A stretch of 64,000 bases of DNA from Eggerthellaceae bacterium. Lineage in GTDB: Bacteria > Elusimicrobiota > Elusimicrobia > Elusimicrobiales > Elusimicrobiaceae. Within the stretch, counting starts at the first letter, position 1. Each line of letters begins with the position of its first letter. A program made the position numbers and the translations under genes. Where the stretch lies: the NCBI GenBank assembly GCA_963634865.1, contig CAVHDF010000001.1, positions 22,294 through 86,293 on the forward strand, given 5' to 3'. The notes below the pieces were generated by a model. That model searched no databases. It was not told where the DNA came from and saw only the letters and a program-made list of their open reading frames with translations. Below are positions 32,767 through 59,404 of this stretch, piece after piece.

Positions 32767-32777
32767 TTCGTAAGAAT

Positions 32778-33266: not shown

Positions 33267-33313
33267 GTGGCGAAAATTTGTTTTTATTATACTGGGAGTA
33301 ACTAGGAGAAAAG

Positions 33314-34066: not shown

Positions 34067-34072
34067 ACAGGA

Positions 34073-34819: not shown

Positions 34820-34829
34820 ACTTAATTTT

Positions 34830-37097
<2,268 letters not shown>

Positions 37098-37098
37098 C

Positions 37099-38727: not shown

Positions 38728-38730
38728 ACC

Positions 38731-39621: not shown

Positions 39622-39635
39622 AGAGGATAAAATTT

Positions 39636-41009
39636 ATGAAAAAACAACTTTTCGCCGTCTTAGCCGTTTGTACCGCCTTAGGGGTGGTGGCCGCGCCGTT
39701 GCGCCAGCCCAACCCCATTCGCCAGCATGGTAAAGAAGAAGGCATGCTGCTAGATTTGAACAAAATCACCTTGGGCACGCTCAACGATGTAGAAGAGAAG
39801 AAACAGTATCTGTCCACCGTCCAGCTGGAAAAGCAGCGCATTCAAAATTACATGTTGCGCCAAGTGTATGAAAACGCGTACACCCTCTATAAGCGGGGGG
39901 ACTACCAACGCGCCCAAGAAATGGCGCAGACCATTTTGAGCATTGACCCCAATTTTACCCAAGCCTCCACCTTGGCCAAACAGGCCGGGCACATGGGCGC
40001 CTATGGCACCACCTCTGAGGCGGAAGTGATTGAGGCCAAATTCCAAGAGGCCAACCGGATGTATGATTCCGGCCGCTTGGTGGAAGCCAATGAAAAATTA
40101 GACGAGATTTTGACCATCCAGCCGCACAACGGCAAGGCGCTGTCTTGGAAGAAACGCATAGATAAGGACATCGCCCAAGAATACAGCCGCCGCGGCAACG
40201 TGGCCTATGAAAAGCAAAACTACCAGGTGGCTTTGGACAACTGGTACAATGCCTTGCTGATTCGCAAAGACGACCCGGCCTTGGTCAACAAAATTGCCCA
40301 GACCGAAAACCTGCTGCGCAAACAACAGGTGCAAGAGGCCATGGAACAGGCCATGGATTTTTACAACAAGGGCCAGTATTTGGAATCCTACTCTGTGTTT
40401 GAACGGATTACCAAAATCCAGCCGGGGGACCAGCGCGTGCAAAAATACATGACGCAGCTGAAGGACGAAATTGCGTCCAGCTATTATACCGCGGGGAATA
40501 AATCCTACGGCGCCCAAAAATTTGACAGTGCCATTAATTACTGGACCAACGCCAAAAAATGGGGGGCGGATTCCTCTAATATGGACCGTCTGATCAAAAA
40601 GGCGCGCAACGCCAAAGAAGACGCCATCCGCCGCAAACAAGAGGCGGTGCGCAAGGCTGCCGAAGCCGCTGAGGAGAAAGCCAAAGCCGCCGAGGAAGAA
40701 CCGGCCAAGGAAGAGGAACCCATTGAAACCGTGACGGTGGAAGGCAATGGCTTGAGCCCGTTGGCGCCGGAAGCGGCGGCGGACCCCAACAATGTGGCCG
40801 CGGGAATTGGCGGTGCGACGGGTGGGCGTGTATCGGCGGAAGCCAGTGCGGCCTCTCACCAGAAATATTTGGAAGGGTTGGACGCGTATAACCAAGACGA
40901 TTACGAACGCGCCCGTGCGGCGTGGATTGCGGCCAAGCAGCTGGACCCGGGCAACACCGATGCCGATTCCGGTCTGCGCCGTGTGGAAGAGTTGACGGGC
41001 ATCCGCTAA
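39636..41009 (+). CDS. Exported TPR protein (possible TadD-like pilotin role)
   Basis: Signal peptide, repeated TPR-like helices, position directly after tadC. Confidence 0.7.
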   Translation: MKKQLFAVLAVCTALGVVAAPLRQPNPIRQHGKEEGMLLDLNKITLGTLNDVEEKKQYLSTVQLEKQRIQNYMLRQVYENAYTLYKRGDYQRAQEMAQTILSIDPNFTQASTLAKQAGHMGAYGTTSEAEVIEAKFQEANRMYDSGRLVEANEKLDEILTIQPHNGKALSWKKRIDKDIAQEYSRRGNVAYEKQNYQVALDNWYNALLIRKDDPALVNKIAQTENLLRKQQVQEAMEQAMDFYNKGQYLESYSVFERITKIQPGDQRVQKYMTQLKDEIASSYYTAGNKSYGAQKFDSAINYWTNAKKWGADSSNMDRLIKKARNAKEDAIRRKQEAVRKAAEAAEEKAKAAEEEPAKEEEPIETVTVEGNGLSPLAPEAAADPNNVAAGIGGATGGRVSAEASAASHQKYLEGLDAYNQDDYERARAAWIAAKQLDPGNTDADSGLRRVEELTGIR

Positions 41010-41021
41010 ACGGGGAACAAT

Positions 41022-42137
41022 ATGAAACTGACATCCAAGTGGACTTTATGGTTTGTGCTGGTGTCGCTCTATGCGGCCATTATCGGCGGGTTGTTTTATT
41101 ACAACTTGTTTAAGTTCGTCTTTGACAAAAAATTGCAAAACGAAATGGTGGAAATGGTGCGTTTCCGCGCGCCGCTGCTGGTGTCCAGTCTCTCGGCCCG
41201 GCCCCGCAGTGACGCCACCTTCCGCGAAGCCGAAGTGATGAAGGCGTGGAAAAAGAATGACGACCGCATTAAAGATTTGGTGTACTTTAACGATGACGGC
41301 TCCGTCCGCTGGCACGAAAACACGCGCTTTTTAAAGATTTCTTATACCGATTACGGCAACGAGATCGGCGGGTTCAACAGCGCGGTGGTGCCGCAAGCCA
41401 TTCGCGACCGGGTGCCCAAAGCCCTGATGTTTGACGACGGGGAATATTACGATATGGCGATCCCCGTGTTGGCCAAAGATACGGTGGCCGGGGTGGTCAA
41501 TTTGACGGTGTCGCGCGCATCGGCCAAGTCCCTTATCCGCCAGTCCATGGTGCGTTATGGGGTGGGCGCGTTTATTATGATTTTGCTTATCGGCGGGGTG
41601 CTGTATTTGTTCCTGCTGCTTAAGATTATTCGCCCGCTGGAAACGTTAAAAGACGCGGTGGACGCCGTGTCGCTCAACCGTTTGGAGCTGCCTTTTACGC
41701 CGCGCGCAGACGAAATCGGCGCCGTGGCGGGGGCCATTGTGGCCATGTTGGGCAAAATTAAAGAAGAAGTAAAGAGCCTGGAAAATGTGGAAATTTTGTC
41801 CATTGAAAAGGAACAAAAATGGTGGAAGACCATTTTGGCCGTGACGGTGCCGCGCGGTTCGCGCGCGCTGGTCATTGATGAGAATAACAATATTCTCTAT
41901 ACCAATTTTGAAATGAACATCACCAAAAAGGGGCCGGTGCATTTGCTGGATATTTTTGACGGACGCCAGCAGAACATCATCCAGGTGGTGGGCGAAGCGT
42001 TGGAAAACCCCGGTAAAGTATTGCGCGGCAGCGTGGTCAACAAGAACGTTAAATGCACGGTCAAAGCCGTGCAGCTGCCTGACGACGCGGGCAAAAACCG
42101 CGTGGTGCTTGTGCTGGAGCCTGAAAAATCTTTATAA
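41022..42137 (+). CDS. Membrane sensor-like protein (TM-periplasmic-TM-HAMP, no catalytic output)
   Basis: IIRPLETLKDAV..RADEIGAVA HAMP pattern; PAS-like LVIDENNNILYTN. Confidence 0.7.
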   Translation: MKLTSKWTLWFVLVSLYAAIIGGLFYYNLFKFVFDKKLQNEMVEMVRFRAPLLVSSLSARPRSDATFREAEVMKAWKKNDDRIKDLVYFNDDGSVRWHENTRFLKISYTDYGNEIGGFNSAVVPQAIRDRVPKALMFDDGEYYDMAIPVLAKDTVAGVVNLTVSRASAKSLIRQSMVRYGVGAFIMILLIGGVLYLFLLLKIIRPLETLKDAVDAVSLNRLELPFTPRADEIGAVAGAIVAMLGKIKEEVKSLENVEILSIEKEQKWWKTILAVTVPRGSRALVIDENNNILYTNFEMNITKKGPVHLLDIFDGRQQNIIQVVGEALENPGKVLRGSVVNKNVKCTVKAVQLPDDAGKNRVVLVLEPEKSL

Positions 42138-42170
42138 TGAAAGGAAGGGGTTTTGCCCCTGGGAGAGAGT

Positions 42171-42443
42171 ATGAAAGTAGAAATTAAAAAAATCGGCATT
42201 TTGAATGTTATTTTTTCCGTATTCCCGGTGGCTGTATTTGTGGTCATGCTCATCGGCGGCATCATGAATATGTTCAACCCGGAGGTCTCTTTGAATATGG
42301 CCTTTGTGGTCAATATGATCATGTCTGCCATTGTGAACACGTTGCTGTTCTTGGTGTTTACCGTTTTCTTTTTGTTGGCCTATAACTTGCTGTGCGGCGT
42401 GGGTATCCGCGGGGTAAGCGTAGTGCTGGAAGACAAAGAATAA
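42171..42443 (+). CDS. Small two-TM membrane protein
   Basis: Two hydrophobic helices; GGAGAG upstream. Confidence 0.7.
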   Translation: MKVEIKKIGILNVIFSVFPVAVFVVMLIGGIMNMFNPEVSLNMAFVVNMIMSAIVNTLLFLVFTVFFLLAYNLLCGVGIRGVSVVLEDKE

Positions 42444-42467
42444 ATTAACAAGAGAGGAGAATCAGGG

Positions 42468-43430
42468 ATGAAGAAATTATTGATTTTAGCCGTAGCCTGC
42501 GGTTTGACTTTGTCTGCGCAAGCCGCCAATACGTCGGCCAAAGGGGCCAAAACCGCCAAGAAACCGGCCGCTAAACCGGTGGTGGAATTTGTGGTGGTGG
42601 AAGCGCCGGACTATGCCTCCGGCAAGCACGACCCGCAGATCACGACGGGCTTGGCCAACTTTTTGGAAGGCGAAGCCAAAGTGACCACGATGGACGCCAA
42701 CCAAGCCAAACAAGAGGCAGAACTAGCCAATGTGGACTATCACTTTTTGCCCGTTTACCTGGTGGCCAAAACGCCAAAAGCCATGGAAAAATTTGAGCAG
42801 CCCATTAAAAATGGCTACATCAAAGAAACCGGTAAATATTTGATTTTGCCGCAAATGGGCCGCACGGGCGTGTACCAAGACAAAATTGCCCAACCGGGCG
42901 TGTTGGAAGTATTTGTGATGTCTCAGTGCCCCTATGGCGCCATGGCGGAAAACCTGATCATCCAAGCGCAAAAAGACGGCAAAATCCCCGCCGACAAAAC
43001 CATTAAGGTGCGCTATATCGTCAACTACAATAAAGACACCCAAGAGTTCCAAAGCTTGCACGGCTCGGCCGAGTGGGAAGAGAACATCCGCCAGTTGCTT
43101 ATCGCCAAATATTATCCCACCAAATTTTGGAAATATTTGGAAATCCGCAACCAAGACTACCGCTCCAGCCGCTGGGACAAAGCCATGCAAGAGGCCGGCA
43201 TCAACCCCAACAAAATTATGAAGAAGTTTGACACCGAAGGGGTGGAATTGCTCAAGGCCGAGGCCGCTTACGCCGATGAATACGGCATGAATGCCTCTCC
43301 GAGCTTCTTGTGGGAAGGCAAAGAACAGTTGGATTTCGGCAGCGTTTCCCAAAAGCCCGGTTTGGAATTTTTGAACCCGGCCAATGCCCGTCAGCAAGGC
43401 GGCAAGGCCGCTCCGGCGGGCAGCTGCTAA
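42468..43430 (+). CDS. Exported thioredoxin/DsbA-fold-like protein
   Basis: LEVFVMSQCPYG, SLHGSAE, YGMNASPSF cis-Pro loop; signal peptide. Confidence 0.7.
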   Translation: MKKLLILAVACGLTLSAQAANTSAKGAKTAKKPAAKPVVEFVVVEAPDYASGKHDPQITTGLANFLEGEAKVTTMDANQAKQEAELANVDYHFLPVYLVAKTPKAMEKFEQPIKNGYIKETGKYLILPQMGRTGVYQDKIAQPGVLEVFVMSQCPYGAMAENLIIQAQKDGKIPADKTIKVRYIVNYNKDTQEFQSLHGSAEWEENIRQLLIAKYYPTKFWKYLEIRNQDYRSSRWDKAMQEAGINPNKIMKKFDTEGVELLKAEAAYADEYGMNASPSFLWEGKEQLDFGSVSQKPGLEFLNPANARQQGGKAAPAGSC

Positions 43431-43519
43431 ACGCAGTGTCCAATATAGGGATTTAGACAGCGGGGGCTTGGGAGCGATCCCGGCCCCCGCCTGCAATAAA
43501 CGGATTTTTCAAAGTAACC

Positions 43520-45403
43520 ATGAGCCAAAAAACAGGACGTCTTTTTTCCAGAGCCATTTTAGCCTTAAGCGTGGTGTCTGCTTTGCCGGTGCTGCTCATC
43601 GGCTGGCATGTGCTGCGCGTGGACAACCGCGTCCTGCAAAATGAAATTTTAGACAAGCAACGCACCGTGGCCGGGCAAATTGCTTCCGTCTTGTCCGAAG
43701 AAGTCAGCCGCAAGGCGCAGTTCTTTTCCGTCTTTACCGATTTACATACCGATTTCGGCGGTCACCCTTTTATCAACAAAGAAGACATTGACTATTTGCG
43801 CACCAAAAACCCCGAAATCACGCATATTTCCGTTTTAAACAACAAGGGCCGCCAGCTGTTTTATTCCAGCGAGGAAAGCAGCCGCTTTAGCTACGCCTCG
43901 GAGCTGGACAATATTTTGCACACCTGTGTGGAGCAGGGGCAAGATTATGTCGGTTCGGTCAACCGGGTTAACGGGAAGCTGTACGCCTTGATGGCGTTCC
44001 CGTTGCGCCGGCATTTAAGAGACGCCAAAATCACGGGCGTGCTGGTGGCGGAGATGAATTTGGCCGCCTTGGGCAGCGCTTTGCAAGAGAGCTACCCGGA
44101 GGATTTGTTCGTTGCCGTGACCAGTGCCGACGGACGCTTGATTTCTTACAGCGGGGCCGAGGGCGGTTTGGCCTTAGAAGAGGATTTGCCCTTGCGCGCG
44201 CGGCTGCAGCGGTGGGAGCAGGCTTTGGGCACGCGCAGCGGGGCCCGGGTGGAGCTGTCGGACGGACAGTCCGTGTTGGTTTCCCAGACGCAAGTCCCCG
44301 TGATGCGTTGGACGGTGTATGTGCAACAACCGGCTGACACCATTCGCCGTTTGCTGCTGGAGAGCACCTTTCACTCTTTGTGGGATGTTTTGGTGATTTT
44401 GTTGGTGATGATGGCCTTTGTGCTGCTGACGGGATATTTCGTCATCAGTCCCATTGTCCGCCCCGTGCGCCGCTTGCAAGAGGCCGCTGTCAAGCTGGAG
44501 CAGGAAGACGACTATATGCCCCAAGAGCAAGATTTAATCATCCCCAGCAATGAAATTGGCCAGTTGGCGCGGGTCTTTTTGCATATGGCGCAGGTCCTGC
44601 GTGAGCGCAAAAACGCCGTGGTCTCTGCACAGCAGGAATTGGCCGGGATGAACAAAGAATTGGAACTGCGCGTACAGCAGCGCACGGCCGAACTGAAAAC
44701 CGCCACCGACGAGCTGGTCAAAACCGAGCGTTTGGCCGCTATCGGGCAAATGGCCTCTATCATCAGCCACGAAATCCGCAACCCGTTGGCGGTGATCAGC
44801 AATGCCACGCGCTTGATTAAAACCATAGAGCCGCCCAAAGACGCCAAGCTCATCAAACAATTTTCCATCATTGAGGCGGAAATCAAACAGGCCAACAGCA
44901 TCATCAGCGAGGTGCTGGGCTTTGCCCGCAGCCGCGATATGATTTTAAGCACCATTGACTTAAACAGCTATTTGCATGACCTACTGCTCTCTTTCCCGGC
45001 GTCCAGCGGGATTCACTTGCAGGAAGAGCTGGACCCGGAGAGCGTGCGCCTGAAAATAGACGCCGAGGAAATGAAACAGGCCGTGCGCAATTTAATTTCC
45101 AACGCGTGCGAAGCCATGCAGGGCCAGGGCACCGTTACCTTGGGCACCCGCGTGGGCAAAAAGGTGGTCTGCATTTACGTGGCCGATGAAGGCCCCGGCG
45201 TGCCGGACGAATTAAAGGAAAAAATCTTCTCGCCGTTCTTTACCACCAAGGCCCGCGGCACGGGGCTGGGGTTGGCCGTGGTGCGCAAAGCCGTCGGCCG
45301 CCACAAAGGCAAAATGTTTATACACAACCGCGCCACGGGCGGAGCTATTTTTGAAATTTATTTGGCAATTTATCGTAAAACCGGAGATACCCGCTATGGA
45401 TAA
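43520..45403 (+). CDS. Membrane sensor histidine kinase (NtrB-like, HAMP)
   Basis: [44 protein letters not shown]. Confidence 0.95.
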
Positions 45404-46517
45404 ACAAGTAAAAATTTTAGTCGTAGACGATGACAACAACCTGCGCGAAACGCTGGCGGACTTGCTGGAGATTGAAGGCTACAAGGTCTATCAAGCCGCC
45501 GACGGCAAAGAGTGCATGGATTTGGTGTCTTCTGAATTTTTTAACGTGATTTTAATGGACTATAACTTGCCCGATGAAACGGGCTTGGACCTCATCCGCA
45601 AAATCCGCTCCTTCAACCAAGACAGCCAAATTTTGATGATCACGGCGTACGCTTCGCTCAACTCTATTATGGAAGCGATGAAAGAATCGGTATATGACTT
45701 TTTGATTAAGCCGGTGGATTTTGATTATTTAAAACGCGCCATCAACCGCGCCTTGGACAAATATTTCTTGGAACAAAGCAACAAGGAATTGCTCGCCCAG
45801 TTGAAGGTGCGAAATGCGGATTTGGACCGCTTGAACAATATGAAGTCCAAATTCTTTTCCATTGTGTCGCATGACTTGTCTAACTCTTTGATGACTTTAA
45901 AGATGAGCTTTGATATGCTCAAAAAGAAGATGACCCCCAACGAGGACCAAGCCAAAAAGATGTCTTATATGGATGAATCCGTGGCGCAAATTGAGCACCT
46001 GATTAAAGACTTGGTGGACTGGGCCGCCATTGAAAAAGGCAAGCTGCGCATTGAAAAAAGCAACTTTGAATTGACGGGCAGCCTGAAAAAGACCGCAGAA
46101 ATTTTTAAGGACAAAGCCAGCAAGCGCGGCATAGACGTGACCTTTGAAAGCGCGGGGGAAATCCCGGTGTTTGCCGACGAGAAACGCATCCGCCAAGTGA
46201 TCTCTAATATTTTGGAAAACGCCGTGCGCCACACGCCTGACGGCGGCCGCATTGCCGTGAAGGTCAGCAAACTGGATGAAAAAAATGCTAAAGTGTCGGT
46301 AACGGACTCTGGCGACGGCATTGACCCAAAGCAAGCGCCCGAGCTGTTTACCAGCTTTACCCAAGTGGGCGACAAAAGCCGTGTGGGCCGCCTGGGCTTG
46401 GGGCTGTCTATCGCCAAAGATATCGTAACCAATCACGGCGGGCGCATTTGGGCGCAGAGCGATGGCTTGGGCAAAGGCGCCAGTTTTAACTTTACCTTGC
46501 CGGTGAGCGGCAACTGA
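45396..46517 (+). CDS. Receiver + histidine kinase hybrid
   Basis: ILVVDDD, MDYNLPD, DFLIKP; SHDL, NILENAVRHT, DSGDGI, GLGLSIAK. Confidence 0.92.
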   Translation: MDKQVKILVVDDDNNLRETLADLLEIEGYKVYQAADGKECMDLVSSEFFNVILMDYNLPDETGLDLIRKIRSFNQDSQILMITAYASLNSIMEAMKESVYDFLIKPVDFDYLKRAINRALDKYFLEQSNKELLAQLKVRNADLDRLNNMKSKFFSIVSHDLSNSLMTLKMSFDMLKKKMTPNEDQAKKMSYMDESVAQIEHLIKDLVDWAAIEKGKLRIEKSNFELTGSLKKTAEIFKDKASKRGIDVTFESAGEIPVFADEKRIRQVISNILENAVRHTPDGGRIAVKVSKLDEKNAKVSVTDSGDGIDPKQAPELFTSFTQVGDKSRVGRLGLGLSIAKDIVTNHGGRIWAQSDGLGKGASFNFTLPVSGN

Positions 46518-46546
46518 TTTTGACTCTGTACGGGAGCGAACAACAC

Positions 46547-47233
46547 ATGAATAAGAAGAAAAAAGTCAAAGTGCTTATTGCAGATGACCAAACCCTCTTC
46601 CGCGAGGGCATCAAAGATGTGCTGACCGGAGAGAAATGGATAGAAGTAGTCGGCGAGGCGGCCGACGGCCTGCAGGCGGTGGCCTTGGCCAAAAAACTCA
46701 AGCCCGATGTGGTGCTGATGGACATCAAGCTGCCCAAATTGGATGGCATTGCCGCCACCAAGCAAATCCGCCAGACCGCGCCAGAAGTGAATGTGCTGAT
46801 GTTGTCTTCGTTTGAAGACGAAGCGCACGTTTTAGACGCCATTCAAGCCGGGGCCAACGGGTATTTGTCTAAAATGTTGCCGGCGGCGGAGCTGGTCAAC
46901 TCCATTAAAACTTTTACGGCGGAAGGGTTGATGATTCCGCAGCAGCTGATGGGCAAACTCTTGCACGGGTTGCGCCGCATGGGCGAGGGCGGTATGCCCA
47001 GCCAAGCCACGCTGACCAAGACGGAAATCAAAGTCATGGACTTTTTGGGCAAGGGCTTAAGCAATAAAGAGCTGGCCAAAGAGTTGGGTTGCAGCGTAAA
47101 GACCATTAAGAATCATTTAAACAGCGCGTTCCACAAACTGGGCGTCAGCAGCCGCACCGAGGCCGTGGTCAAGGCCATTGAAAAGGGGCTGATTTCCTCG
47201 GAAGGGACGAAATTTACCGAAGACGAAGAGTAA
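46547..47233 (+). CDS. NarL/LuxR family response regulator
   Basis: VLIADDQTLFREG, PDVVLMDI, GLSNKELA, VKTIKNH, KLGVSSRTEAV. Confidence 0.95.
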   Translation: MNKKKKVKVLIADDQTLFREGIKDVLTGEKWIEVVGEAADGLQAVALAKKLKPDVVLMDIKLPKLDGIAATKQIRQTAPEVNVLMLSSFEDEAHVLDAIQAGANGYLSKMLPAAELVNSIKTFTAEGLMIPQQLMGKLLHGLRRMGEGGMPSQATLTKTEIKVMDFLGKGLSNKELAKELGCSVKTIKNHLNSAFHKLGVSSRTEAVVKAIEKGLISSEGTKFTEDEE

Positions 47234-49076: not shown

Positions 49077-49105
49077 TTGACAAAACGCTCAAATCCGTTT
49101 ATACT
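49077..49105 (+). promoter_or_regulatory. Near-consensus sigma70 promoter for the downstream array
   Basis: TTGACA-17 bp-TATACT. Confidence 0.75.
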
Positions 49106-49216
49106 GTTAGTAGCGCCAGGGGCGCTAAAGATTTAAACTCTGTGTTTGAGCGTATGAGTCGTCTTCTTACGGGTCAACAAGAGTGATTTTTTATATTTAT
49201 GTAAAGGGAGCCTATT

Positions 49217-50749
49217 ATGTTCAACCTGTTTAACAAAGGGTCCAAGGTCAAAGCGGGCAAACAGAATAACCAAGAAAAACCCGCCGCGGCCGCCCTCAAC
49301 GCCTCCGGCAAAAAGCCCGCCCCCAAAGGGAGCGTGCTGAGCAATGCCTTTAAGAAGTTAAACTCCATGGACCGCCGCCAGGCCTATACCTACGGCGCGG
49401 TGGTGGTAGTGGCCTTGGTGGCGCTGCTGACATTGGGCAGCGTGGCGGGCTCGTCTGACAAAGAAGATTTTTCTGATTTTGAAACCCGTGGGTATGATTT
49501 GGCCAATATGCCCTTTTCTACCGATGAGGCGGAGCAATACCTCTTGGCCTCTAAATACCCGGATATGAAGGATAAAGGCGCCCCCGGCCTCTACAGCGCC
49601 AGCGACAAAGCCGCCCGCCAAGCCGAGGATGCCGAGGCCGCCGAAGAGGCCGCCAGTGAGCTGGACACTTCCGCCACGTCCCAAGGCAGCGCTTATGTGC
49701 CGGGGCGGTATTATGGCGGCGGAGCCGGTGGCCGCGGGAGTGGGGCCCGCACGCAAGTGGGCAGCTTAAACAGCGCCAGCTTGAAAGGGGCCAGCGGCAC
49801 CGGGATGAGCGGCACCTTTGGGCCGCGGGGGGACTTTTCTAACTTCCGCAGCCAAGAAAAAGGCAGCGACCGCTTTACCCCGCAAGGCCCGGGCAGCGGG
49901 GATGCGCGCAAAGCTTTGTATCAAACGGCCATGGGCAGTCGAGCAGCGGCGGGTTTAAAAGACGGCAAGTTGCTCAATGCCAAAAAGGCCATGATGGGCG
50001 GCAATATTAAGGGCAGCGGAGCTTTTATGGACGACAGCGGCGGCGTCAAGTTAGATAAGCTGGGCGGTTTGCAGCTGGATACCAACGCTCCCGCCAGCAG
50101 CGCCGACCTGAGTGGTTTGGATGAGGGCGTGAATGACGCCAATAAAAAAGCCCAAGAGCAGGCCCAGGAAGAAGATAAAAACAGAATTTGGCGGGAAATG
50201 CTTTCCCAGATACTTCAAAAAGTGGTAGATTTTGGGCTCAATGTCGCACAGCAATATGTGGGGGCTAAGATTTCCCAAGCGCAGCAGGTCAATGCCTCTG
50301 TCAATGCTCAAACAGCCAATGCCGTTAAAGCGGATTATGCCCTGGTAAAAAGTTCGGAAAGTGCCCAAGGGCAGTTGGGCTCTACGCTGAACTACAATGA
50401 TTTAGTTAACATGAACCCTTCAGAATTGAAGGGATTGGGTATTACTAAGACTACGGCAAATGGTTCTACCACTTTTTCTATGGGGGAGAGCAGTGTAACT
50501 ACGGGCTCTAATGCTACGCTTGTTTTAGGGGACTCGCAGCAAAAACCTTTGTCTAAAATAAATAATGCCCGCTGGGATGCGTATTATTCCAGCTGGGAGG
50601 ATAGTCATAAGGCTCAAATTAAAACTTGGAAACAGGAAGCGAAGTTGAACTATGTGTCTAACCAGTCTGGTTATACGGGGCGTCAGTTTGACCCCACTAC
50701 CGGCAAATGGTATCGCGTTGTAAACGGACAGTTAATTTGGGAAAAATAG
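49217..50749 (+). CDS. Single-pass membrane protein, Gly/Ser/Ala-rich linker, divergent C-terminus
   Basis: Basic N-terminus, TM YGAVVVVALVALLTLGSV, low-complexity middle. Confidence 0.8.
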   Translation: MFNLFNKGSKVKAGKQNNQEKPAAAALNASGKKPAPKGSVLSNAFKKLNSMDRRQAYTYGAVVVVALVALLTLGSVAGSSDKEDFSDFETRGYDLANMPFSTDEAEQYLLASKYPDMKDKGAPGLYSASDKAARQAEDAEAAEEAASELDTSATSQGSAYVPGRYYGGGAGGRGSGARTQVGSLNSASLKGASGTGMSGTFGPRGDFSNFRSQEKGSDRFTPQGPGSGDARKALYQTAMGSRAAAGLKDGKLLNAKKAMMGGNIKGSGAFMDDSGGVKLDKLGGLQLDTNAPASSADLSGLDEGVNDANKKAQEQAQEEDKNRIWREMLSQILQKVVDFGLNVAQQYVGAKISQAQQVNASVNAQTANAVKADYALVKSSESAQGQLGSTLNYNDLVNMNPSELKGLGITKTTANGSTTFSMGESSVTTGSNATLVLGDSQQKPLSKINNARWDAYYSSWEDSHKAQIKTWKQEAKLNYVSNQSGYTGRQFDPTTGKWYRVVNGQLIWEK

Positions 50750-50759
50750 GAGCTAACAT

Positions 50760-52223
50760 ATGAAAATCTTAACATGGATCTTGGATAAATCGGGCAAAAT
50801 GGCCCTTTCCGGCCTGCAAGCGGTGGGTTTATCCGCCGCGGTGGGATTGGCCGGCATCGGGGCGTGGCAACTGCTCAGCGCACCGGAAGACGTCAACCCG
50901 AATACGGCTTTTTCATCCGGTGCCGATGATGAAGTGGTGTTCGTGGCGGGTGGCGCTGCGGGCGGCGCTTACAGCGGCGTAGGCTATGGCGAAGGGGGCG
51001 AAGTACGCTCCGGCATTCGCGCCACGCTGTCTAAGGATATGCAGCTGATGAACAGCGATTTGCAACGCGTGCAAATCCCGGATACGCCGCAGGTCATCCA
51101 AGACGAGCAGAAAATCCAAGCTTTTAAAATGGACGGCGCCACCGAGGGCCTGGGCTTAGGGGCCAATGGCGCTTCTGCCTTGGGCGCAGGGCCCAACGGA
51201 GCTATGGGTTCTTTGCAGGATAAAATTGCCGCGTTAGAGGCCAATGCCAAAGAGCAAGCCGCTAAAGCGCAGGCGGCTGCCGGCGGGAAAGACGCCGTGG
51301 CTGCCGCGGCGGCGGCCTTAAATAAATCCGCGGCGGGCAAATACGGCATGAATGCCGGCATGGCCCGTGCGGGTGGACACAATTTAAACTCTACCCCCTT
51401 GCAGGCTTCCACGGGGATGGAAGGCGAAAGCTTGCGCGGCGGTGTGCTGGGCGGTAACCAAGCCAATCAGCGTTTGGCCGCGGCCAATAGCCCGGTGGCT
51501 GCCTTTCAGGGCGGGCGTGACGCTACGGTCTTAGACGGTCGCCGCTTTAGCGGAATGAACTCCTTAGAGGGCTTGCGCAAACAGTCGGCCGAAGTGGCCG
51601 CCAACCGCAACCGCTCCGTCAACGAGGGTACCCGCGTCTTTATGGGTGGGGAAAAACTCTCCGGCGGCATCCAGCTGGTGGGGGAGAACGTGACCACCGG
51701 CGGCGGGGCCAGCTCGGAAGATTTTAAAGACGTCGCTATGCCCAATTTGAGCGGGGTGCAGTCGGACGCAGAAAGTTACGAGGCTGCGCGTGAATCGCTG
51801 CGCCGCGACATCCGGGACTTTGTAAAGAGCTGCAACAACTGGTCTTGGGTTCCCATATATTTGGATATAGGCACTCGTGCGGCGTGGAAAGTAAAAGCCC
51901 GCAATGAACTCAATAAAAAGATTGATAATTTTAGAAATATGTGGGGAAAGTCTAGCTATGAGAAAAACAATAGCCAGGGCGAATACTCCGATATGGCCAG
52001 CAAAGTGGTCAAGAAAATGTTAGGCGCCATGTATACCCCGGGCAGACCTAAGAAGTTGGCCCAGGACTACAGCGTGAGATACTTTGCTGTGGACGGGGCT
52101 TTTTGGAAGAAAAATTGGGATACGCCGACGGACCAAGAAAAGGCGGATTTCAACAAAAAGTATTCCAATAGCTATCAATACAGTGGTGCGTTAAGAGACC
52201 ACTATGCCAACGAAATAAAATAA
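50760..52223 (+). CDS. Gly/Ala-rich membrane-anchored protein, paralog of 52251
   Basis: N-terminal hydrophobic helix; shared QS..VAANR.RS.NE...VFMGGE.LSGGIQ motif. Confidence 0.8.
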   Translation: MKILTWILDKSGKMALSGLQAVGLSAAVGLAGIGAWQLLSAPEDVNPNTAFSSGADDEVVFVAGGAAGGAYSGVGYGEGGEVRSGIRATLSKDMQLMNSDLQRVQIPDTPQVIQDEQKIQAFKMDGATEGLGLGANGASALGAGPNGAMGSLQDKIAALEANAKEQAAKAQAAAGGKDAVAAAAAALNKSAAGKYGMNAGMARAGGHNLNSTPLQASTGMEGESLRGGVLGGNQANQRLAAANSPVAAFQGGRDATVLDGRRFSGMNSLEGLRKQSAEVAANRNRSVNEGTRVFMGGEKLSGGIQLVGENVTTGGGASSEDFKDVAMPNLSGVQSDAESYEAARESLRRDIRDFVKSCNNWSWVPIYLDIGTRAAWKVKARNELNKKIDNFRNMWGKSSYEKNNSQGEYSDMASKVVKKMLGAMYTPGRPKKLAQDYSVRYFAVDGAFWKKNWDTPTDQEKADFNKKYSNSYQYSGALRDHYANEIK

Positions 52224-52250
52224 GTTTATTTTTAAGGAGCCGGAGGAATT

Positions 52251-53708
52251 ATGAAAGTCTTACAAATCTTAAAAAGCCGCATAGGCAACGTCAGCAAGGC
52301 GGGCCTGTTGGGCTTGGGCGTAACGGCCGGGTTGGTGGGCCTGAACCTGTACAATTACGCGACGGAAGGCCCCGCGGCCCAAGAGCAGAAAATCCGCTCT
52401 CTGTCGCAGATTATCGCCTCCGGCGACGCGGTGCCAGCGGAATACTCCGGCATCAATATCAGCCGGGGCCAAAACGAGTTTGCCACCGCCGAGGAAGTCT
52501 CCGCCCGCGAAGGCCGTATGTTTGACGGCGGAGAGGGCGCTGTGGCTGCTTTGAGCGGGATTTCCGTGCGGGGCACGGCTTTAGGGCAGGGCGAAGGCGG
52601 TTTGGGCATGGGTGAAAATGCTGCCACCGCCATTGCCGGCTCCCGCGCAGCGGCGGGTGCGGCTGCACCGGACGGCTCGGCCATTGCGGCTGCCGCGGCG
52701 GAAAAAGCCAAAGGCACCCAAATTAACAAATTGGGCGAAGAAAGAGCGGGCGGCTTGCAGCGTGCCGCCATTACCCGCGCTTCGGGCTCTAGCTTAAGCA
52801 CGGGTGGCCAAGGGTTCGGTGCGTCCGCTACGTCGTCCACTCGCAGCGCAGCCCGCAGTGAGGCGGCCTCCCGGATAGGGGCCTCTTCTATCAGCGGAGC
52901 CATGCCCGAAGGCAGCACCTTGGTGGCCTCTAACGGCAGTTTCCGCGGGGCGGCTTCGTCCTCTTTCACCCCGGCGGGGCGCAATGCCCGCGTGGGCAAA
53001 GGTTTGAACTCCAAAGAAGGGCGCGACTTGCGCTCCATTGCCGTGCAGTCGGGCAAAGTGGCCGCCAACCGGCACCGCTCCGATAACGAAGCGGCCCAGG
53101 TCTTTATGGGTGGGGAGCGTCTCTCCGGCGGTATCCAAACCACGGACGGCAGCGTAACCACCGGCGGTACGGCCAGTACGGAAGATTTTGAAGGAGATTT
53201 GCAAGCCAAGCAGGCCAATTTGGACAACAGCATCAGCGAAATTGACACCACGGAGCAAGAGCGTGCCGCTAAACGCAGCCAGTTGGGCAAAAAATTGATT
53301 GCGCTGTTGTTTGCCACAATTGCGGCGATGATTGCCATTTCTACTTTGAGAAACATGAGCCCGTGGGGCACCGTGGCGGCTGCGGTGGTTACGGCGGCAA
53401 TGGCCCTTTCCTTAGTTTTGTTCTTAGTTGACTGTGGTAAGTACATGGATAAATACCATTCGGATGCTGCCAGTATTTCATTTATGGTTTGCGGCGTCTT
53501 GCTTATGGCGGCTGTGGGTATTGCGTGGGTCAAGCCTGTATCCAAGTGGATTAGCAAAATTGTCGGCAAAGTCGGCAAGGGCTTGGGATTAGGCGAAGGC
53601 TTTGTGGCAAACGCAGGGTCCTCTGCTATGGGCAAAGCGGTTAGCCAAGCAAAGACAGACGTGGTTGAGGCCGTCTCAGAGGACGGCAGTGGCTTAAGTA
53701 ACGGCTGA
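52251..53708 (+). CDS. Gly/Ala/Ser-rich membrane-anchored protein with C-terminal hydrophobic helices
   Basis: Same shared motif as 50760; three hydrophobic segments near the C-terminus. Confidence 0.8.
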   Translation: MKVLQILKSRIGNVSKAGLLGLGVTAGLVGLNLYNYATEGPAAQEQKIRSLSQIIASGDAVPAEYSGINISRGQNEFATAEEVSAREGRMFDGGEGAVAALSGISVRGTALGQGEGGLGMGENAATAIAGSRAAAGAAAPDGSAIAAAAAEKAKGTQINKLGEERAGGLQRAAITRASGSSLSTGGQGFGASATSSTRSAARSEAASRIGASSISGAMPEGSTLVASNGSFRGAASSSFTPAGRNARVGKGLNSKEGRDLRSIAVQSGKVAANRHRSDNEAAQVFMGGERLSGGIQTTDGSVTTGGTASTEDFEGDLQAKQANLDNSISEIDTTEQERAAKRSQLGKKLIALLFATIAAMIAISTLRNMSPWGTVAAAVVTAAMALSLVLFLVDCGKYMDKYHSDAASISFMVCGVLLMAAVGIAWVKPVSKWISKIVGKVGKGLGLGEGFVANAGSSAMGKAVSQAKTDVVEAVSEDGSGLSNG

Positions 53709-53716
53709 GGTAAACT

Positions 53717-54010
53717 ATGGCAAAGGTAGATCAAGTGTTGAAGCGTATTTTTGCTTGGGCCGTGCTACTGATTATCGTGGCTGGCGGGGTGGTGGCGTAT
53801 GCGCATTTTAATATGCAGTACCGCCAAGCCCAGCGGGAATTGATTTACATCAAAGCCCGTGAGCAGGTCGCACAAGAAAAGGCCCAGCGCCAGCGCGACT
53901 ATCAAAAGCGCCTGCGCGAACGGGAGCTGCGCCAGCAGTTTAACCGCGGCCGCGTGGTGGACATCAGCGGACGGGCCGCCCTGCCCACCGGGTCCGGCCC
54001 GACCAAGTAG
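53717..54010 (+). CDS. Small TM + basic coiled-coil protein
   Basis: GAGG RBS; IFAWAVLLIIVAGGVVAY; Arg/Gln/Glu-rich helix. Confidence 0.75.
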   Translation: MAKVDQVLKRIFAWAVLLIIVAGGVVAYAHFNMQYRQAQRELIYIKAREQVAQEKAQRQRDYQKRLRERELRQQFNRGRVVDISGRAALPTGSGPTK

Positions 54011-54054
54011 CTATTTGACCTGGGCCGCCGCACTCCGGCGGCCCGGAGGAATAT

Positions 54055-55587
54055 ATGAAACAGGAAAAAAACAATTTCCCGCCCGCAGAAGAGCCGCATT
54101 TGGCTCCGCTGACGGTGCGCCAACCTCTCACGCCACCCCCGGCTGCCCGGCCGTCTTTTGAAAAGCGCTGGCAGCGCAAGCGGTATTTGGCCGGGGCGGC
54201 CCTTGTTTTTTTCTTGTTTGCGATTATATTTATAATACCGGTGGGACATTTGCCGGGGCTGCGCCATTTGGCGTGGATGATGGGTTTTAGTGTGCAAGAT
54301 ACCCAAACCATCAGCTTTGCCAAAGCTTTGCTGACGTGGGTGGGCGATGGGGAACGCATAACTGCCGCTCGGGCTGAGACGGCGGGTGCGTTATCGGTCT
54401 TTGACAGAAATGTGCAAGAGGGCTTTAACGCCGCGGGGCCGCGCTCGGGGTTGTTTGACCTGGCGGCGGTGAACGCTTCGCGTCGCGCGCGTGGGTTGCG
54501 CGCGGACGGGCTGTCCGGCGCGTACGAGGCTTTGGACGGGGAAGAAGGCCCCGCCGCCATGACCCGCCGCGTCAACGGTTGGAGCCAAGAGGCCCGCCAA
54601 GCAGACGCCGCCAAAAACCGCACCGAAGTATACTTTGGCCAAGACGCTGATGTAATGGCCCGCACCGCGGCGGAGAACCGCCGCACGCGCGGCTCTTCAG
54701 ACACTATTGCCTTGTTGCCCAAGGCTCAGGTGGCGGGGAGCGTTCCATTCAACTGGTTTGGCGAAGCGGTGGAAAAAGCCACCATGCAAAGCTTAAGCGG
54801 GCTGGATGATTCGCTCGGGCAAAAAAGCCGCACGGGCAGCACCGCGCTGAGCCGCTCCGGCGGGAACCTGACCGCCGGGCAAAAGGCCCAGCAGGATTTA
54901 GCCCGCGTGTGGCTGATGAGCAGCGCGTCGGAACGGGCCAAACAGCTGATGCTCAAAAAGCAGCTGGCCTTGGCGGGGTATGTTTCTATGGAGATGCCCA
55001 AAAAGGTGTTTGACTCCATGGGCATGGGCTCGGGGGTGCGTTTGCAGGGCGATGAAATGGTCGGCCAGTTTGAAGACGCCAACCGCCGTTTGCTTAATGA
55101 CGAGCAATGCCGCAAACTGGGCGAAAGCGCCAACGTGACCGTGAACAACAATTTAGAGAAATCCCGCGAGCTCATCCGGCAGGTGCGTGCCTCAGTGCCC
55201 AAGAGCTGCGGGGCCGTGCAAGGGTGGCGCGGCAATTTGACCGCCGTGCAGACCCAATGCAAAGAAGTGGGGGACACCTTTTCTAATATGAGCACCGCTT
55301 GCGGCGTGCAATTAAAGTCCAAGGGCCGCTGCGAGACGACGTATTTGAATTCGTACGCGGATGATTTAGACGCCGCTTGTGAGGCCTTGGCCGCGGCAGA
55401 AGCGGCTGACCCGCAAGACGAAGAGGCCTTAAAAGAGGCCCAAGATTTGGTCAAACGGACCATTAACGGATTTGACGAAAAACAGCTGGACAATACGTTT
55501 AACATCGGCGTAGACAAGCTGCCCGCGGGGGAGAATGACTTCTTCCCGGTCATGGAAGGCAGCACCGGGTGGATCAACCCGGGTTGA
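54055..55587 (+). CDS. Single-pass membrane protein with Cys-containing helical C-terminus
   Basis: GGAGG RBS; TM YLAGAALVFFLFAIIFIIPV; six C-terminal Cys. Confidence 0.8.
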   Translation: MKQEKNNFPPAEEPHLAPLTVRQPLTPPPAARPSFEKRWQRKRYLAGAALVFFLFAIIFIIPVGHLPGLRHLAWMMGFSVQDTQTISFAKALLTWVGDGERITAARAETAGALSVFDRNVQEGFNAAGPRSGLFDLAAVNASRRARGLRADGLSGAYEALDGEEGPAAMTRRVNGWSQEARQADAAKNRTEVYFGQDADVMARTAAENRRTRGSSDTIALLPKAQVAGSVPFNWFGEAVEKATMQSLSGLDDSLGQKSRTGSTALSRSGGNLTAGQKAQQDLARVWLMSSASERAKQLMLKKQLALAGYVSMEMPKKVFDSMGMGSGVRLQGDEMVGQFEDANRRLLNDEQCRKLGESANVTVNNNLEKSRELIRQVRASVPKSCGAVQGWRGNLTAVQTQCKEVGDTFSNMSTACGVQLKSKGRCETTYLNSYADDLDAACEALAAAEAADPQDEEALKEAQDLVKRTINGFDEKQLDNTFNIGVDKLPAGENDFFPVMEGSTGWINPG

Positions 55588-55739
55588 CACAGGGGCCGAA
55601 TATAGCTTAAATGTAAGTATCGGCTCTACCGATTTAGTAATGCAGTACCCGGCCTTAACGCGCCCAGGCGGCCGTTAAGACCCAGCAGTACCCGCAGAAG
55701 CTTTGCGGGAATACGGCAGTTATCTCTAAGGAGACTGTT

Positions 55740-58700
55740 ATGGCTGAGAATAAGAAGGATTCCTTCACGTTCAGCGATAAGATTAAAAACAGCAAGCCTG
55801 CTTTTAATCCGTTCTCTAAACGTGTTTCCTCCAAAATCGGCAGCAACGGAAAGCCCAAAAAGACCCTTTTTGAGCGCACCCGCCGCGACGCGCCTTTCTT
55901 CGTCGCTGCAGCTGCTGCCTTGCTGATGCTCCCGTTCCTGTATAAATACAGCGGCAGCATCAACGAAGGAGTGATTGTACCTCCGGGCTCGGAGGACTCC
56001 GTTTTTGACCCCGAACGCTATGGGTTTAGCCCCAGCAACGAGGACCCGAACGGACAGATTGCACAAATGGCCGGGCGCGACCCCTTGAGCCTGATCAAAG
56101 GTTGGGGCTCTGCCGAACCGGAAGAAGACCCCCAGATGTACGACGTGGACCGCCGCGACGGTTTGGACGATACGTATACGCCCTCTGCCCCGACGGCCAA
56201 CGATTCGCCCCGGGCGTATGCTCCGGCGGCTACGCGCGCCGCGTTCCAACGCAACCCGACCAAGATTAAAGAGTTGGGTTCTGCCTCTATGAACCTGCGC
56301 GGCGGCGGCGGTGGGTTTGGCCGCTTTGGCGGTGCCAACCTCAAACGCGCGGCGAACCAAAACTCGGCCGGCGCCCCCAAACAGGGCACCAAGCCGGTGT
56401 CTTTACAACCGTTGCGCGCGGCGGATAAACCGTCCCGCTCTTACTTTGGGCAAAGCAGCGCCGCTCAGGCCCGCGCTTCGCGCGACGCCATGGGCAAGGC
56501 CGACGCTAAAACCGCTCTGCGCGATGCTATGTTTAAACCCGTGGAAAACGGCCGCTTAGGCGGTTTGGGCACGGGCGACTTCGCCTCTGGCGGCGGCTCG
56601 GGCAAGTTAGACATCACCCACGATTACAAAGGCATCACCCCGTGGTGGTGGGACATGATGAAAGAACGCGCCCAAAAGAAATGGGAGTGGAAATACTTCC
56701 TGTGGAGAAAGAACTTGCTTGAACCCTTGATCAAGGACGTCTTAGCCACGGGGTTGACTCATCTCTTGAACTGTGCCATTTGGGGTAACGCTGATGGGGA
56801 CATGGACTATTTCCTCGGAGGGGCTCCTGGAACAAGTAAAGAGGGGTTTTGTCAGGGCATTAAAGAATCTGAATGGGACGAAGCTGTTGCCCGAGCCAAA
56901 GCAGAGGGTAAGGATAGACCGTGGGGCTCTTTCCCCAATTCGGAGGCTAATTGCCGCCGCAACATGAACCTCGGAGACGACGTGAAAGTGAAGTTTGAAA
57001 AAGGCAGCTCTGTCGTGGGCGGAAAAGGTGTCATCGGAGCGAGATTGTCTTGCTTGGGTGGTGTGTGGCGAGGTGGTAAAAATGCAGGAGCCACCCTGGT
57101 AGATGATCGCCTCTCTTGCCGGGCTGTAGATACGACGCATAACTTTGAATTGCAGACCAGTGGTAAGGCCGCCAGCTGGCGTTATAAATACCACGTCATA
57201 GTAGCTAAAAACTATGTGCCGTTTGACAATGCCGGTACGCACTACCTCTGCGGTATGGGCAATAAAAATGCCAATAAACAGAGTGTGGCGGCGGTAGAGA
57301 ATGCCCAGGGCGCCGAAAGCGATATTAGAAAGAAAGACGCCACCAAAAAGACATATAGCCGTTACGCCGCGGATAATTATGACGGCTTGCAGCGTGGCGA
57401 TGTTAACGACGCGTGCGTCATCTATGTGGCGCAAGGACCTGCCTTGAAATGGCAAGACTTCAAAGCCAAAACCATGACGCTGTTGGAGCAATTGGGGCTG
57501 AAGAAAAACGGAAGAGCTGTTTCCGGAGAAGAAGCCTTCAATGCTTTGCAGCTGTACTTTATTGAGGGCTATGCTTTCAAGCACCCGATGTCTAAAGGCG
57601 GCAATGAAACCAAGGCCATCAATGACAATGGCAAAATGGTGAAAGTGAGAAACATGCCGGTGGATGTCTTGCCCATGGCATATGTAGACTTTGAGAGCTA
57701 CTATGTCTTGCGCCGCAAGAATGACTCTAAAGAAGACTCTGCCAAGCTCAATGATAAGTGGCGTGTGTATGAGGGGAATTTCACGCATGTGGACGGATCA
57801 CCCCGCACCACTTTGGCTGGAGCTAACCAAAGAGTGGATTCTGCCCGTGTGGTTTGCCCGTTCGCTAACTTCCAAATCAAAGCGCAAGCGATAGATTCCT
57901 TGAGCAGCTTGGTCGCGGACTTGACCTTTAACCCGAAAGTGCACGGCACTACGGGGGGCGGCATCAAGGTAACCCTGGACGTGCCGGAAGCCGGCTTGAA
58001 CGGCATCCCGGTGAAGGGGGCTATGGAAGGCGGAGAGGACAACAAGACGGTGGCTACGCATCGCTTTGAGCCGAATGCCGCGCAGATGAAAGCCTTAAAT
58101 GACGCTTTGGCCCAAAACGGGCAGATTACCGCCAAGTGGACGGCAAGACGTGGGGACAAGTTGTCCCAAGATACGGCCGATTATGCCGGCAATGAGCTGT
58201 TCGTAGAGCAACCGGAAGAAACCGCCTCTTGCCAAGACGGCGAAACAATGCAGTCTACGGACGAGCAAAATTGCACTTGGACGGGCACCTGCAAGGCCGG
58301 TCAGTGGAGCATTGTTAAGGATGATCCCAACTGCGGGCAAGCTGGTTCCAACGGTGGCAATGGAAATGGCAATGGGAATGGTACCGATGTACAAGGAATG
58401 AGACCGTCCCAACCCGTAAGCTTTTTCCAAGGGTTCAACTCAATTCCTGCCAGTGCGGCGGACCGCTTGAACGCCGATGTGAGAAAAGCGGGTGAGAAGA
58501 ACACCGCCGCCAAGCAATGGGGCCAGTGCAAAATAGACATGGACATCGCCACCAAGAAATTGTCTTATGTGGACGATTCCGTTAAAGCGCTGTTGGCCGC
58601 GGCGAAGGCGAAATACGATGCGGCCAATAAAGAAAACGGCACGTACTTGGACTACGATGAAGCCAATGTAACCGTAGCCAACCTGCTGGATGCTATGTTG

Positions 58701-59354
58701 ATTACCGAGCAGAAAGCCGTGTCTAAAAACGCAGTATGTATGTTGGCTAAGAGCATTGCCGTGAACACGAAAGACCCCAGCGTTCCGTCCGCGGGCAACA
58801 ATATGTTCGGTGCCTTTGCGGCCTTTATGGGCAATGACTCTTCTTTCTTCCCGGCGCACTGGGTCAGAGTGAACGGCACGAAAACGCAGGATTTGCGCTT
58901 TACGGGGTGTCTGAATGGCAAAGATATAGAAGCGACTAAGCCGTACCACTACGGGCACTATAACTGGAACCACCATCGCTTGGGTGATGATTCCCAGCAA
59001 AATGACCGCGCTCCGTATGAGCAAGTCTTGGCCAGCGGCATGTGGAGACAGGCTCCGTTGAAGGCCTTGGCGGAAGGAAAAGATTTCCGCCGTGCAACGA
59101 GCATTGGGCAGTTGTCCTCCAGCAACGATACGTTGGATGACGCCAACAGAAAGCTCTATCACGCTGCGTACAGAGACCTGTTCCAAACCTCCGGTTCTTG
59201 TAACTACAGGAATTCGGACACGATGTCTACCGCCGATGCTATGGCGTACATCCAAGCTTTGTGCGACAACGGCACGAACCTTAAACCGGAAAACGGTAGT
59301 AAGTTAGCGTGCGGTGCCAGATACAGAGCTTCCCAATTCGCCGTAGGCGAATAA
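55740..59354 (+). CDS. Large single-pass surface protein, Gly-rich linker then long Cys-rich region
   Basis: AAGGAG RBS; TM FFVAAAAALLMLPFLY; ITPWWWDMM; GNGNGNGNG tract. Confidence 0.82.
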   Translation: MAENKKDSFTFSDKIKNSKPAFNPFSKRVSSKIGSNGKPKKTLFERTRRDAPFFVAAAAALLMLPFLYKYSGSINEGVIVPPGSEDSVFDPERYGFSPSNEDPNGQIAQMAGRDPLSLIKGWGSAEPEEDPQMYDVDRRDGLDDTYTPSAPTANDSPRAYAPAATRAAFQRNPTKIKELGSASMNLRGGGGGFGRFGGANLKRAANQNSAGAPKQGTKPVSLQPLRAADKPSRSYFGQSSAAQARASRDAMGKADAKTALRDAMFKPVENGRLGGLGTGDFASGGGSGKLDITHDYKGITPWWWDMMKERAQKKWEWKYFLWRKNLLEPLIKDVLATGLTHLLNCAIWGNADGDMDYFLGGAPGTSKEGFCQGIKESEWDEAVARAKAEGKDRPWGSFPNSEANCRRNMNLGDDVKVKFEKGSSVVGGKGVIGARLSCLGGVWRGGKNAGATLVDDRLSCRAVDTTHNFELQTSGKAASWRYKYHVIVAKNYVPFDNAGTHYLCGMGNKNANKQSVAAVENAQGAESDIRKKDATKKTYSRYAADNYDGLQRGDVNDACVIYVAQGPALKWQDFKAKTMTLLEQLGLKKNGRAVSGEEAFNALQLYFIEGYAFKHPMSKGGNETKAINDNGKMVKVRNMPVDVLPMAYVDFESYYVLRRKNDSKEDSAKLNDKWRVYEGNFTHVDGSPRTTLAGANQRVDSARVVCPFANFQIKAQAIDSLSSLVADLTFNPKVHGTTGGGIKVTLDVPEAGLNGIPVKGAMEGGEDNKTVATHRFEPNAAQMKALNDALAQNGQITAKWTARRGDKLSQDTADYAGNELFVEQPEETASCQDGETMQSTDEQNCTWTGTCKAGQWSIVKDDPNCGQAGSNGGNGNGNGNGTDVQGMRPSQPVSFFQGFNSIPASAADRLNADVRKAGEKNTAAKQWGQCKIDMDIATKKLSYVDDSVKALLAAAKAKYDAANKENGTYLDYDEANVTVANLLDAMLITEQKAVSKNAVCMLAKSIAVNTKDPSVPSAGNNMFGAFAAFMGNDSSFFPAHWVRVNGTKTQDLRFTGCLNGKDIEATKPYHYGHYNWNHHRLGDDSQQNDRAPYEQVLASGMWRQAPLKALAEGKDFRRATSIGQLSSSNDTLDDANRKLYHAAYRDLFQTSGSCNYRNSDTMSTADAMAYIQALCDNGTNLKPENGSKLACGARYRASQFAVGE

Positions 59355-59371: not shown

Positions 59372-59404
59372 ACCCCGGGGACGAAATAAGCCCCGGGGTT
59401 TTTA
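59372..59404 (+). terminator. Intrinsic terminator ending the array
   Basis: accccgggg..ccccggggt followed by T run. Confidence 0.7.

Follow-up and report, generated by a model that had tools for sequence, protein, structure and literature searches.

The Kil system of Myxococcus is Tad-based (tight adherence), acts in cell contact and killing and uses interchangeable Tips that are minor pilins, as described in the parts of PMC12075869 and PMC12428579 that were accessible. A Tad machine of Bdellovibrio likewise acts in cell contact and killing, and its TadZ-TadA fusion ATPase was termed atypical in the accessible part of bioRxiv 10.64898/2026.07.08.737194. Tad systems have been reported in Elusimicrobia with no function assigned in the sections of PMC6668835 at hand, and the available excerpt of bioRxiv 10.1101/2023.11.21.568195 holds nothing on Tad. 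We analyzed a 64,000-nt stretch of an Elusimicrobiaceae genome (contig CAVHDF010000001.1; genome of 1.46 Mb, 94% complete), hereafter called the window, in whose coordinates all positions are given, and describe an array of five large genes and one small gene (A, B, C, s, D and E) downstream of a Tad locus. D and the TadG-like protein of this genome share 90% clusters with proteins that bear the name Candidatus Avelusimicrobium facis. The array is real, conserved and undescribed in the literature searched, where no description of it was found. It is linked to the Tad locus, A, B/C and E share a common ancestry, and closely related strains have exchanged outer ends of E and of A. Tentatively, and with somewhat less than an even chance of being right, we read this conserved single-copy operon of related membrane-anchored proteins as a Tad-associated, tethered cell-contact apparatus.

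Compared by features, the locus resembles the predator Tad systems in having TPR and kinase genes close to the Tad core and in its variable distal parts, and it shares with Bdellovibrio the TadZ-TadA fusion, found in the window and across the class. Unlike the Kil Tips, the array proteins have no prepilin cleavage site, and neither such an array nor a dedicated FtsH is named in the accessible parts of the predator papers (PMC12075869, PMC12428579, bioRxiv 10.64898/2026.07.08.737194). The array consists of the following elements:

49217..50749, + strand: gene A, 510 aa, with anchor helix, low-complexity linker and helical motif
Distal part of gene A, + strand: acidic coiled coil, amphipathic helix pair and hypervariable tail from ~50162
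50760..52223, + strand: gene B, 487 aa, paralogue of C with a C-terminal hairpin
52251..53708, + strand: gene C, 485 aa, with Gly-rich N-terminal helix, ~300 disordered residues and coiled coil
~53286-53531, + strand: three hydrophobic helices of gene C in the AlphaFold model, with three helices in 35/41 orthologues
53717..54010, + strand: gene s, 97 aa, one membrane helix and a coiled coil, conserved
54055..55587, + strand: gene D, 510 aa, with anchor, linker and Cys-patterned helical domain
55740..59354, + strand: gene E, 1204 aa, with a highly conserved N-terminal 325 aa followed by a Trp-rich amphipathic helix
~56715-57029 and 57897 to end, + strand: exchangeable Cys-rich segments of gene E
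~57864-58190, + strand: predicted immunoglobulin (Ig)-like domain of gene E

All six open reading frames (ORFs) lie at the expected positions in the ORF list of the window. A sequence-only reading of the region had proposed five large ORFs sharing an N-terminal membrane helix, a low-complexity linker and a helical motif, and both the ORFs and their orthologues agree with it. A hydrophobic helix at the N-terminus was called in 38/38 orthologues of A, 39/41 of B, 30/41 of C, 34/40 of D and 34/34 of E. Basic residues precede the helix, and Gly, Ala and Ser together make up 32–49% of residues 100–300. In B and C the N-terminal helix is rich in Gly and, on a crude scale, only marginally hydrophobic, unlike that of A and D. 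Cysteines are nearly confined to the part distal to the linker (7.4 versus 0.2 in D, 22.1 versus 0.1 in E), a distribution which together with a DsbA-like gene in the locus, itself a weak match, suggests export of the distal parts.

Behind the helical motif, A and E carry an amphipathic element, C and most B proteins a coiled coil, a hydrophobic hairpin and a third helix. This helical element would have membrane affinity in each array protein. The B hairpin is soluble in the clade of the window; the sister clade, like the environmental relatives, has a hydrophobic one. Numbers of distal hydrophobic helices are labile, with none in 13/41 B proteins, one to four in environmental B/C proteins and none to two in environmental D proteins, which is unlike a fixed anchor. 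Some environmental D orthologues gain a glycine-zipper-like hairpin; the glycine-zipper match in one of them is weak (E about 0.005–0.009). AlphaFold leaves residues 1–310 of C mostly unmodelled and is confident for helices 311–444 alone, while the distal part of E folds well (predicted local distance difference test 79) and includes a predicted Ig-like domain with a best Z score of 8.2 and a root-mean-square deviation of 3.0 over 89 residues.

No library searched has a name for any of these proteins. None of the six window proteins matched a family over cut-off in Pfam, NCBIfam or PADLOC, and none of 32 environmental B/C proteins did so in PHROGs. Searching PDB sequences with five profiles returned weak or coiled-coil matches alone; Foldseek found nothing at E≤0.001 for the models of C and E, and a wide structural search, which barely covered the E domains other than the Ig-like one, matched C to three-helix bundles of a generic kind and E to Ig-like sandwiches. 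In the ESM Atlas the nearest clusters are unnamed Elusimicrobiota proteins. A profile search with A recovered 129 relatives with a sharp drop-off, and environmental forms were not reached.

We then compared the distal ends between strains, since the C-terminal domains had been taken for switched ones. Alignment of orthologues confirmed a constant N-terminus with distal replacement by recombination for E and A between close strains, weakly for B and C, and not for D. Identity of A and E to the window proteins falls steeply at about residue 320. Among 26 distinct close E sequences the mean difference is 0–7% before residue 300, 63% at 361–420 and 31–51% after 720; among 20 close A sequences it is 0–6% before residue 320 and 19–29% after it (both sets are listed cluster members, at most 15 per cluster, and an uneven sample). 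In the close sets of B and C the difference peaks at 16% (near 361–400) and 14%, respectively, and in that of D it stays below 10% throughout, without exchange within the species group. Where E proteins share 94–100% identity in the N-terminal part, their alleles are mosaic. P0228 and P0230 do not differ at all over residues 1–300 and hardly differ from 720 to the end, yet they are only 25–30% alike at 360–420, and P0229 is 95–100% identical to both in the N-terminal part and 17–38% alike after 720. The mosaics were seen in assembled records; assembly chimeras are an unlikely cause because the alleles recur across records (clusters of 6, 61, 2 and 4 members).

Synonymous divergence (dS) climbs along with protein divergence in the exchanged segments. 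For E of the window and of locus L001, dS is 0.09–0.15 in the N-terminal part and 1.5 to saturated in most distal segments. For A of the species pair L006 and L008, dS is 1.1–1.4 in the N-terminal and 0.4–0.7 in the C-terminal part, the C-terminus thus being the closer one. Distal E distances are not coupled to those of the TadG-like gene in the clade of the window (Spearman coefficient 0.16 to −0.23) and partly track them in the sister clade (0.51–0.69). Exchanged E segments are homologous alleles which keep their Cys, Trp and Tyr positions, and true domain change in E was found between genera alone, where some E proteins end OmpA-like.

A shift of codon usage toward A/T endings in the C-terminal parts of four genes had been suggested as well, and the GC counts quoted for two lines of sequence (18/60 and 40/60) are exact. 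We scored the break in GC content at third codon positions (GC3) by best split, corrected for amino-acid content, and ranked it against 601 ORFs of the genome. The shift is strong in A (Z=5.8, a score reached by 4/601 ORFs), moderate in C (Z=3.4, 17/601) and E (Z=3.1, 20/601), and within chance in B (Z=1.7, 96/601); by the same test D has no break. Four-fold degenerate GC is lower in the C-terminal part in 36/37 orthologues of A, 35/41 of B, 36/41 of C and 29/34 of E, compared with 20/40 for D, 10/34 for the TadG-like and 13/21 for the TPR gene. Since most of the A, B, C and E orthologues show the shift as well, one recent import is rejected as its cause. Three PilE-type pilin genes of the same genome are among the top eight ORFs for the break, in keeping with its being a general mark of variable ends that undergo exchange.

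The genome contains 109 reading frames with a PilE-type pilin start pattern, several of which show a break like that of gene A, with a constant start and an A/T-rich end. Its second strongest GC3 break lies in a 705-aa protein with an added A/T-rich C-terminal domain (C11:10743-12860), which may be a phage portal or head protein.

The C-termini had been called unrelated, which does not hold: B and C are paralogous along their whole length, HHalign linking their C-termini at 96.8% and those of hydrophobic-type B and C at 99.5%. B has lost its distal membrane helices in one clade with the helix register kept, although the profile link is weak (12.6%). Class-level profiles connect A with B/C (96.4%, via the helical motif) and A with E (94.6%), and D joins weakly through its N-terminus (85%). 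Shuffled controls of seven pairs including A–B/C scored at most 18, versus 81 for the real A–B/C pair. Single-gene profiles of gut species detect homology between B and C alone, so that the wider kinship needs class-level alignments; a comparison of environmental with gut E profiles is circular owing to shared rows and was not used. These links suggest that the array proteins probably descend from one old family. The place of gene s depends on the species, being either between C and D or between B and C. Two duplications are lineage-specific: L030 has C and the small gene a second time, and L117/G189 has five tandem B-type genes.

In the genus the array is single copy, fixed in gene order and near-universal. 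B was matched in 34/36 other genomes of the genus and the N-terminus of E in 60/61, and the latter in 83/87 genomes of the family. Weak matches in family f2 (f1 being the family that includes the window's genome) led to arrays of like build, and a profile made from these f2 proteins matched 19/22 in f2, 21/27 in f8, 4/4 in f6 and 1/1 in f12. It had no match in families outside the class, including 0/89 in f15, where an RcpC gene is present in 60/89 genomes despite this; two f15 Tad loci inspected contain no array. An E profile matched 59/79 genomes in eight families, nine of the 59 having supplied rows to the profile, and the TadE-like subtype of the locus matched 62 of the same 79. An E-type gene occurs in 56/62 genomes with this subtype versus 3/17 without it, counts in which kin are not independent, and 14/79 genomes in five families have neither. 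The genes with which the array is associated, and the other elements flanking it, are:

32324..47233, + strand: Tad locus, with two Flp-like pilins, TadE, RcpC/CpaB, short secretin and TadZ-TadA fusion
32324..47233, + strand: further genes of the Tad locus, namely TadB, TadC, TPR, HAMP protein, DsbA-like, two kinases and LuxR-type regulator
47238-47417, + strand: Flp-like pilin upstream of the array, named by its prepilin pattern
47414-48529, + strand: TadG-like pseudopilin upstream of the array
48526-49056, + strand: TadE-like pseudopilin immediately upstream of the array
49077..49105, + strand: sigma-70-type promoter TTGACA-17-TATACT, 11/12 consensus matches
49136..49184, + strand: leader RNA hairpin between promoter and gene A, conserved, with covarying pairs
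59373..59403, + strand: terminator-like GC-rich inverted repeat with long loop, then T run, read from sequence

TadC was named by position and likeness, Flp by prepilin pattern. The TadE-like gene lies at most ~700 bp upstream of A in 36/38 gut loci. In f6 and f8 the order is Tad core, TPR, HAMP protein, kinases, regulator, TadG-like, TadE-like, FtsH, A, B (one to five copies), D and E, and G273 of f1 keeps this order but lacks FtsH and has A flanked on either side by B-type genes. TadE-like and B-type genes lie on the same contig within ~12 kb in 17/26 genomes of f6, f8 and f12. Linkage and co-occurrence with the Tad locus are conserved, with f2 and G121 as exceptions. Gene order in several families speaks for a tie of the array to the Tad locus, although in the two exceptional genome sets the array lies away from Tad; a tie to the Tad machine itself, which had already been proposed, may exist.

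Outside the gut family an FtsH paralogue is found at most 2 kb downstream of the TadE-like gene in 21/25 loci; an array gene is seen downstream in 16 of the 25, two at weak scores. In 5/5 genomes checked the paralogue is an additional FtsH. It has two membrane helices, the AAA motifs and the M41 zinc motif, and all five tested motifs are present in 17/21; Pfam AAA and Peptidase_M41 are over cut-off, and the NCBIfam equivalog cut-off is not reached (460 of 600 bits). The loop between the two membrane helices is very short in the linked FtsH of L113:17267-18973 (minus strand) and 20 other loci, and the gene follows the TadE-like one even where the array lies elsewhere.

In the cell-contact apparatus that we favor, the N-terminal helix would hold each protein in the inner membrane with its basic tail in the cytoplasm, an orientation suggested, like the export of the distal part, by charge pattern and Cys distribution. 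The disordered linker of ~250–300 residues would be long enough to span the envelope, and the Tad secretin would be the likely exit, as the operon holds no other exit gene. E may act as a variable adhesin, and the hairpins of B/C with the amphipathic helices of A and E may engage the membrane at the contact site. An adhesin family had been proposed for the array as a whole; only E fits it, as hydrophobic hairpins form the ends of B and C and variation is absent from D. Exchange of the ends suggests exposure to something variable outside the cell, and selection by a partner cell or phage might drive it. FtsH acts on membrane proteins from cytoplasmic tails, and the dedicated FtsH of environmental lineages might accordingly pull on or degrade the anchored ends, releasing or resetting the complex.

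The translocators SctE and SctB of type III secretion systems (YopB/YopD class) combine a coiled coil followed by a hydrophobic hairpin with an amphipathic partner in one operon. Array proteins are like them in size, in the coiled coil and hydrophobic hairpin of B/C, in the amphipathic partner A and in the shared operon, and differ in sitting on long tethers beside Tad genes. AopB was the sole solved-structure match of the environmental B/C profile, weak (E=0.044) and falling on the Gly-rich helix at the N-terminus instead of the hairpin. Among 60 members none was matched by a translocator family of Pfam, and there is no type III secretion apparatus among the ORFs of the window, the rest of the genome not having been searched for one. 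The bolder version, a new contact machine in which a membrane-inserting, translocon-like set on long tethers passes through the Tad secretin, is powered or reset by FtsH and serves to attach to other cells and breach them, seems to us rather improbable.

Several observations weigh against a contact apparatus. No prepilin cleavage site is found in the array proteins (0/38, 0/39, 0/30, 0/34 and 2/34 for A to E), in contrast to the true pseudopilins with their class III site (33/34 and 33/35). Searches for the FtsH paralogue found none in the window's genome and none in 5/5 other f1 genomes (two of the six being single-contig), which implies that it is dispensable there. dN/dS is below 1 in all segments with measurable dS in the three closest pairs. 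The Z score of the Ig-like domain of E is within the range usual for common folds. An OmpA-like peptidoglycan-binding domain, scoring below curated cut-offs, forms the end of some E orthologues and could attach to the wall of the cell itself. The charges flanking the three C-terminal helices of C fit an ordinary four-pass inner-membrane protein. Such a topology is what Sec insertion would yield by default.

A possibility which we consider real, if on the unlikely side, is an internal envelope scaffold supporting or positioning the Tad machine. TolA and TonB are bitopic envelope proteins with an N-in anchor, a long low-complexity linker and a folded distal domain, a build repeated in the array proteins. 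B and C would then be multi-pass inner-membrane proteins, E would reach the peptidoglycan, the distal ends would vary because phages use them as second receptors, and FtsH would be a quality-control protease. The positive-inside pattern of C suits this, as do its C-terminal helices, about as hydrophobic as those of TadC on a crude scale, the OmpA-like ends of E and a single-copy array near-universal in the genus. Yet B lacks any distal membrane helix in one clade (the weak profile link noted above), its copy number ranges from 1 to 5, and the Ig-like, Cys-rich, mosaic E resembles a surface protein. Array proteins also differ from TolA/TonB in having no sequence or fold match to them, in their distal hydrophobic hairpins, and in forming a paralogue array with strain-level exchange.

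Alternatively, the array might be a Tad-independent variable surface coat or adhesin set, merely an old neighbor of Tad genes. The operon has its own promoter, which also speaks against the contact apparatus: the near-consensus promoter noted in the sequence-only reading was confirmed as a TTGACA-17-TATACT-type pattern preceding gene A in 38/38 loci. It is followed by the leader hairpin, in which 97.7% of cells are paired and 9/18 pairs show changes on both sides (35 sequences); this hairpin has one copy in the window's genome and no matching Rfam family. Moreover, in 19/19 genomes of f2 the contig with the TadE-like gene is not the one with the B-type genes, G121 has its A/B genes, E and Tad locus in three different regions, and a broken-up array is found in G121, G291, G100 and G231. 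This is contrary to a strict Tad link and, for f2 and G121, weighs against the contact apparatus too. We nevertheless judge a Tad-independent coat unlikely, considering that adjacency is retained in three families, that the array co-occurs with one TadE subtype, six genomes with another RcpC-type Tad (f5, f11) being without both, and that the operon holds no other outer-membrane exit gene.

In polymorphic toxin systems recombination swaps distal parts while the N-terminus stays, as stated in the accessible part of PMC3482391. Such a system, with a constant delivery part, a swapped C-terminal toxin and a cognate immunity gene, had been proposed for the array and recalls the distal replacement in E and A, and its hydrophobic hairpins and the weak glycine-zipper match could be pore-forming, but the array does not fit such a system, and we hold any form of it very improbable, as no toxin family was matched in Pfam or NCBIfam and no specific fold was found, there are no stand-alone cassettes (each C-terminal part matches itself alone in the 94% complete genome), the exchanged segments are homologous alleles, and gene s, the suspected immunity gene at 53717-54010, encodes a conserved one-helix and coiled-coil protein that shifts position and does not change with the ends of A and E.

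Retention of a ~10-kb operon even in gut Elusimicrobia genomes of 1.2–1.5 Mb implies a function that cannot be dropped, with outer ends under pressure to change. If true, the bolder contact-machine reading would mean that a class seen chiefly in metagenomes lives by predatory or parasitic contact. The operon is a concrete, testable candidate for how the poorly known Elusimicrobia touch other cells and would add a non-pilin, FtsH-linked accessory module to the known uses of Tad machines. The exchanged segments of E and A could be used as strain-level specificity markers.

Some further features of the locus were noted. The TadZ-TadA fusion ATPase (34830-37097) is present in every full Tad locus of the class inspected, and in two f15 loci by length and likeness. 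The secretin (34073-34819) has just 248 aa, comprising the secretin domain and little else, and TadB (37099-38727) is extended at its N-terminus by a domain of ~230 aa that belongs to no known family. Directly before the Tad locus, 26586-32288 encodes two proteins, one of 1573 aa with FlgD-type Ig domains and the other a UPF0164-like outer-membrane protein, and homologues keep this place by Tad in other families. In 55590-55739, upstream of E, and in relatives, conserved motifs resembling hairpins are clade-specific; the two clades differ, and no one consensus structure emerged across 34 sequences. Large proteins of 880–2526 aa without a clear family follow E in environmental loci (L116:3052-14275 and L113:5-5567). 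Finally, the genes of L002 are 83–99% identical to those of the window, and its record title, Duodenibacillus sp., is therefore probably wrong.

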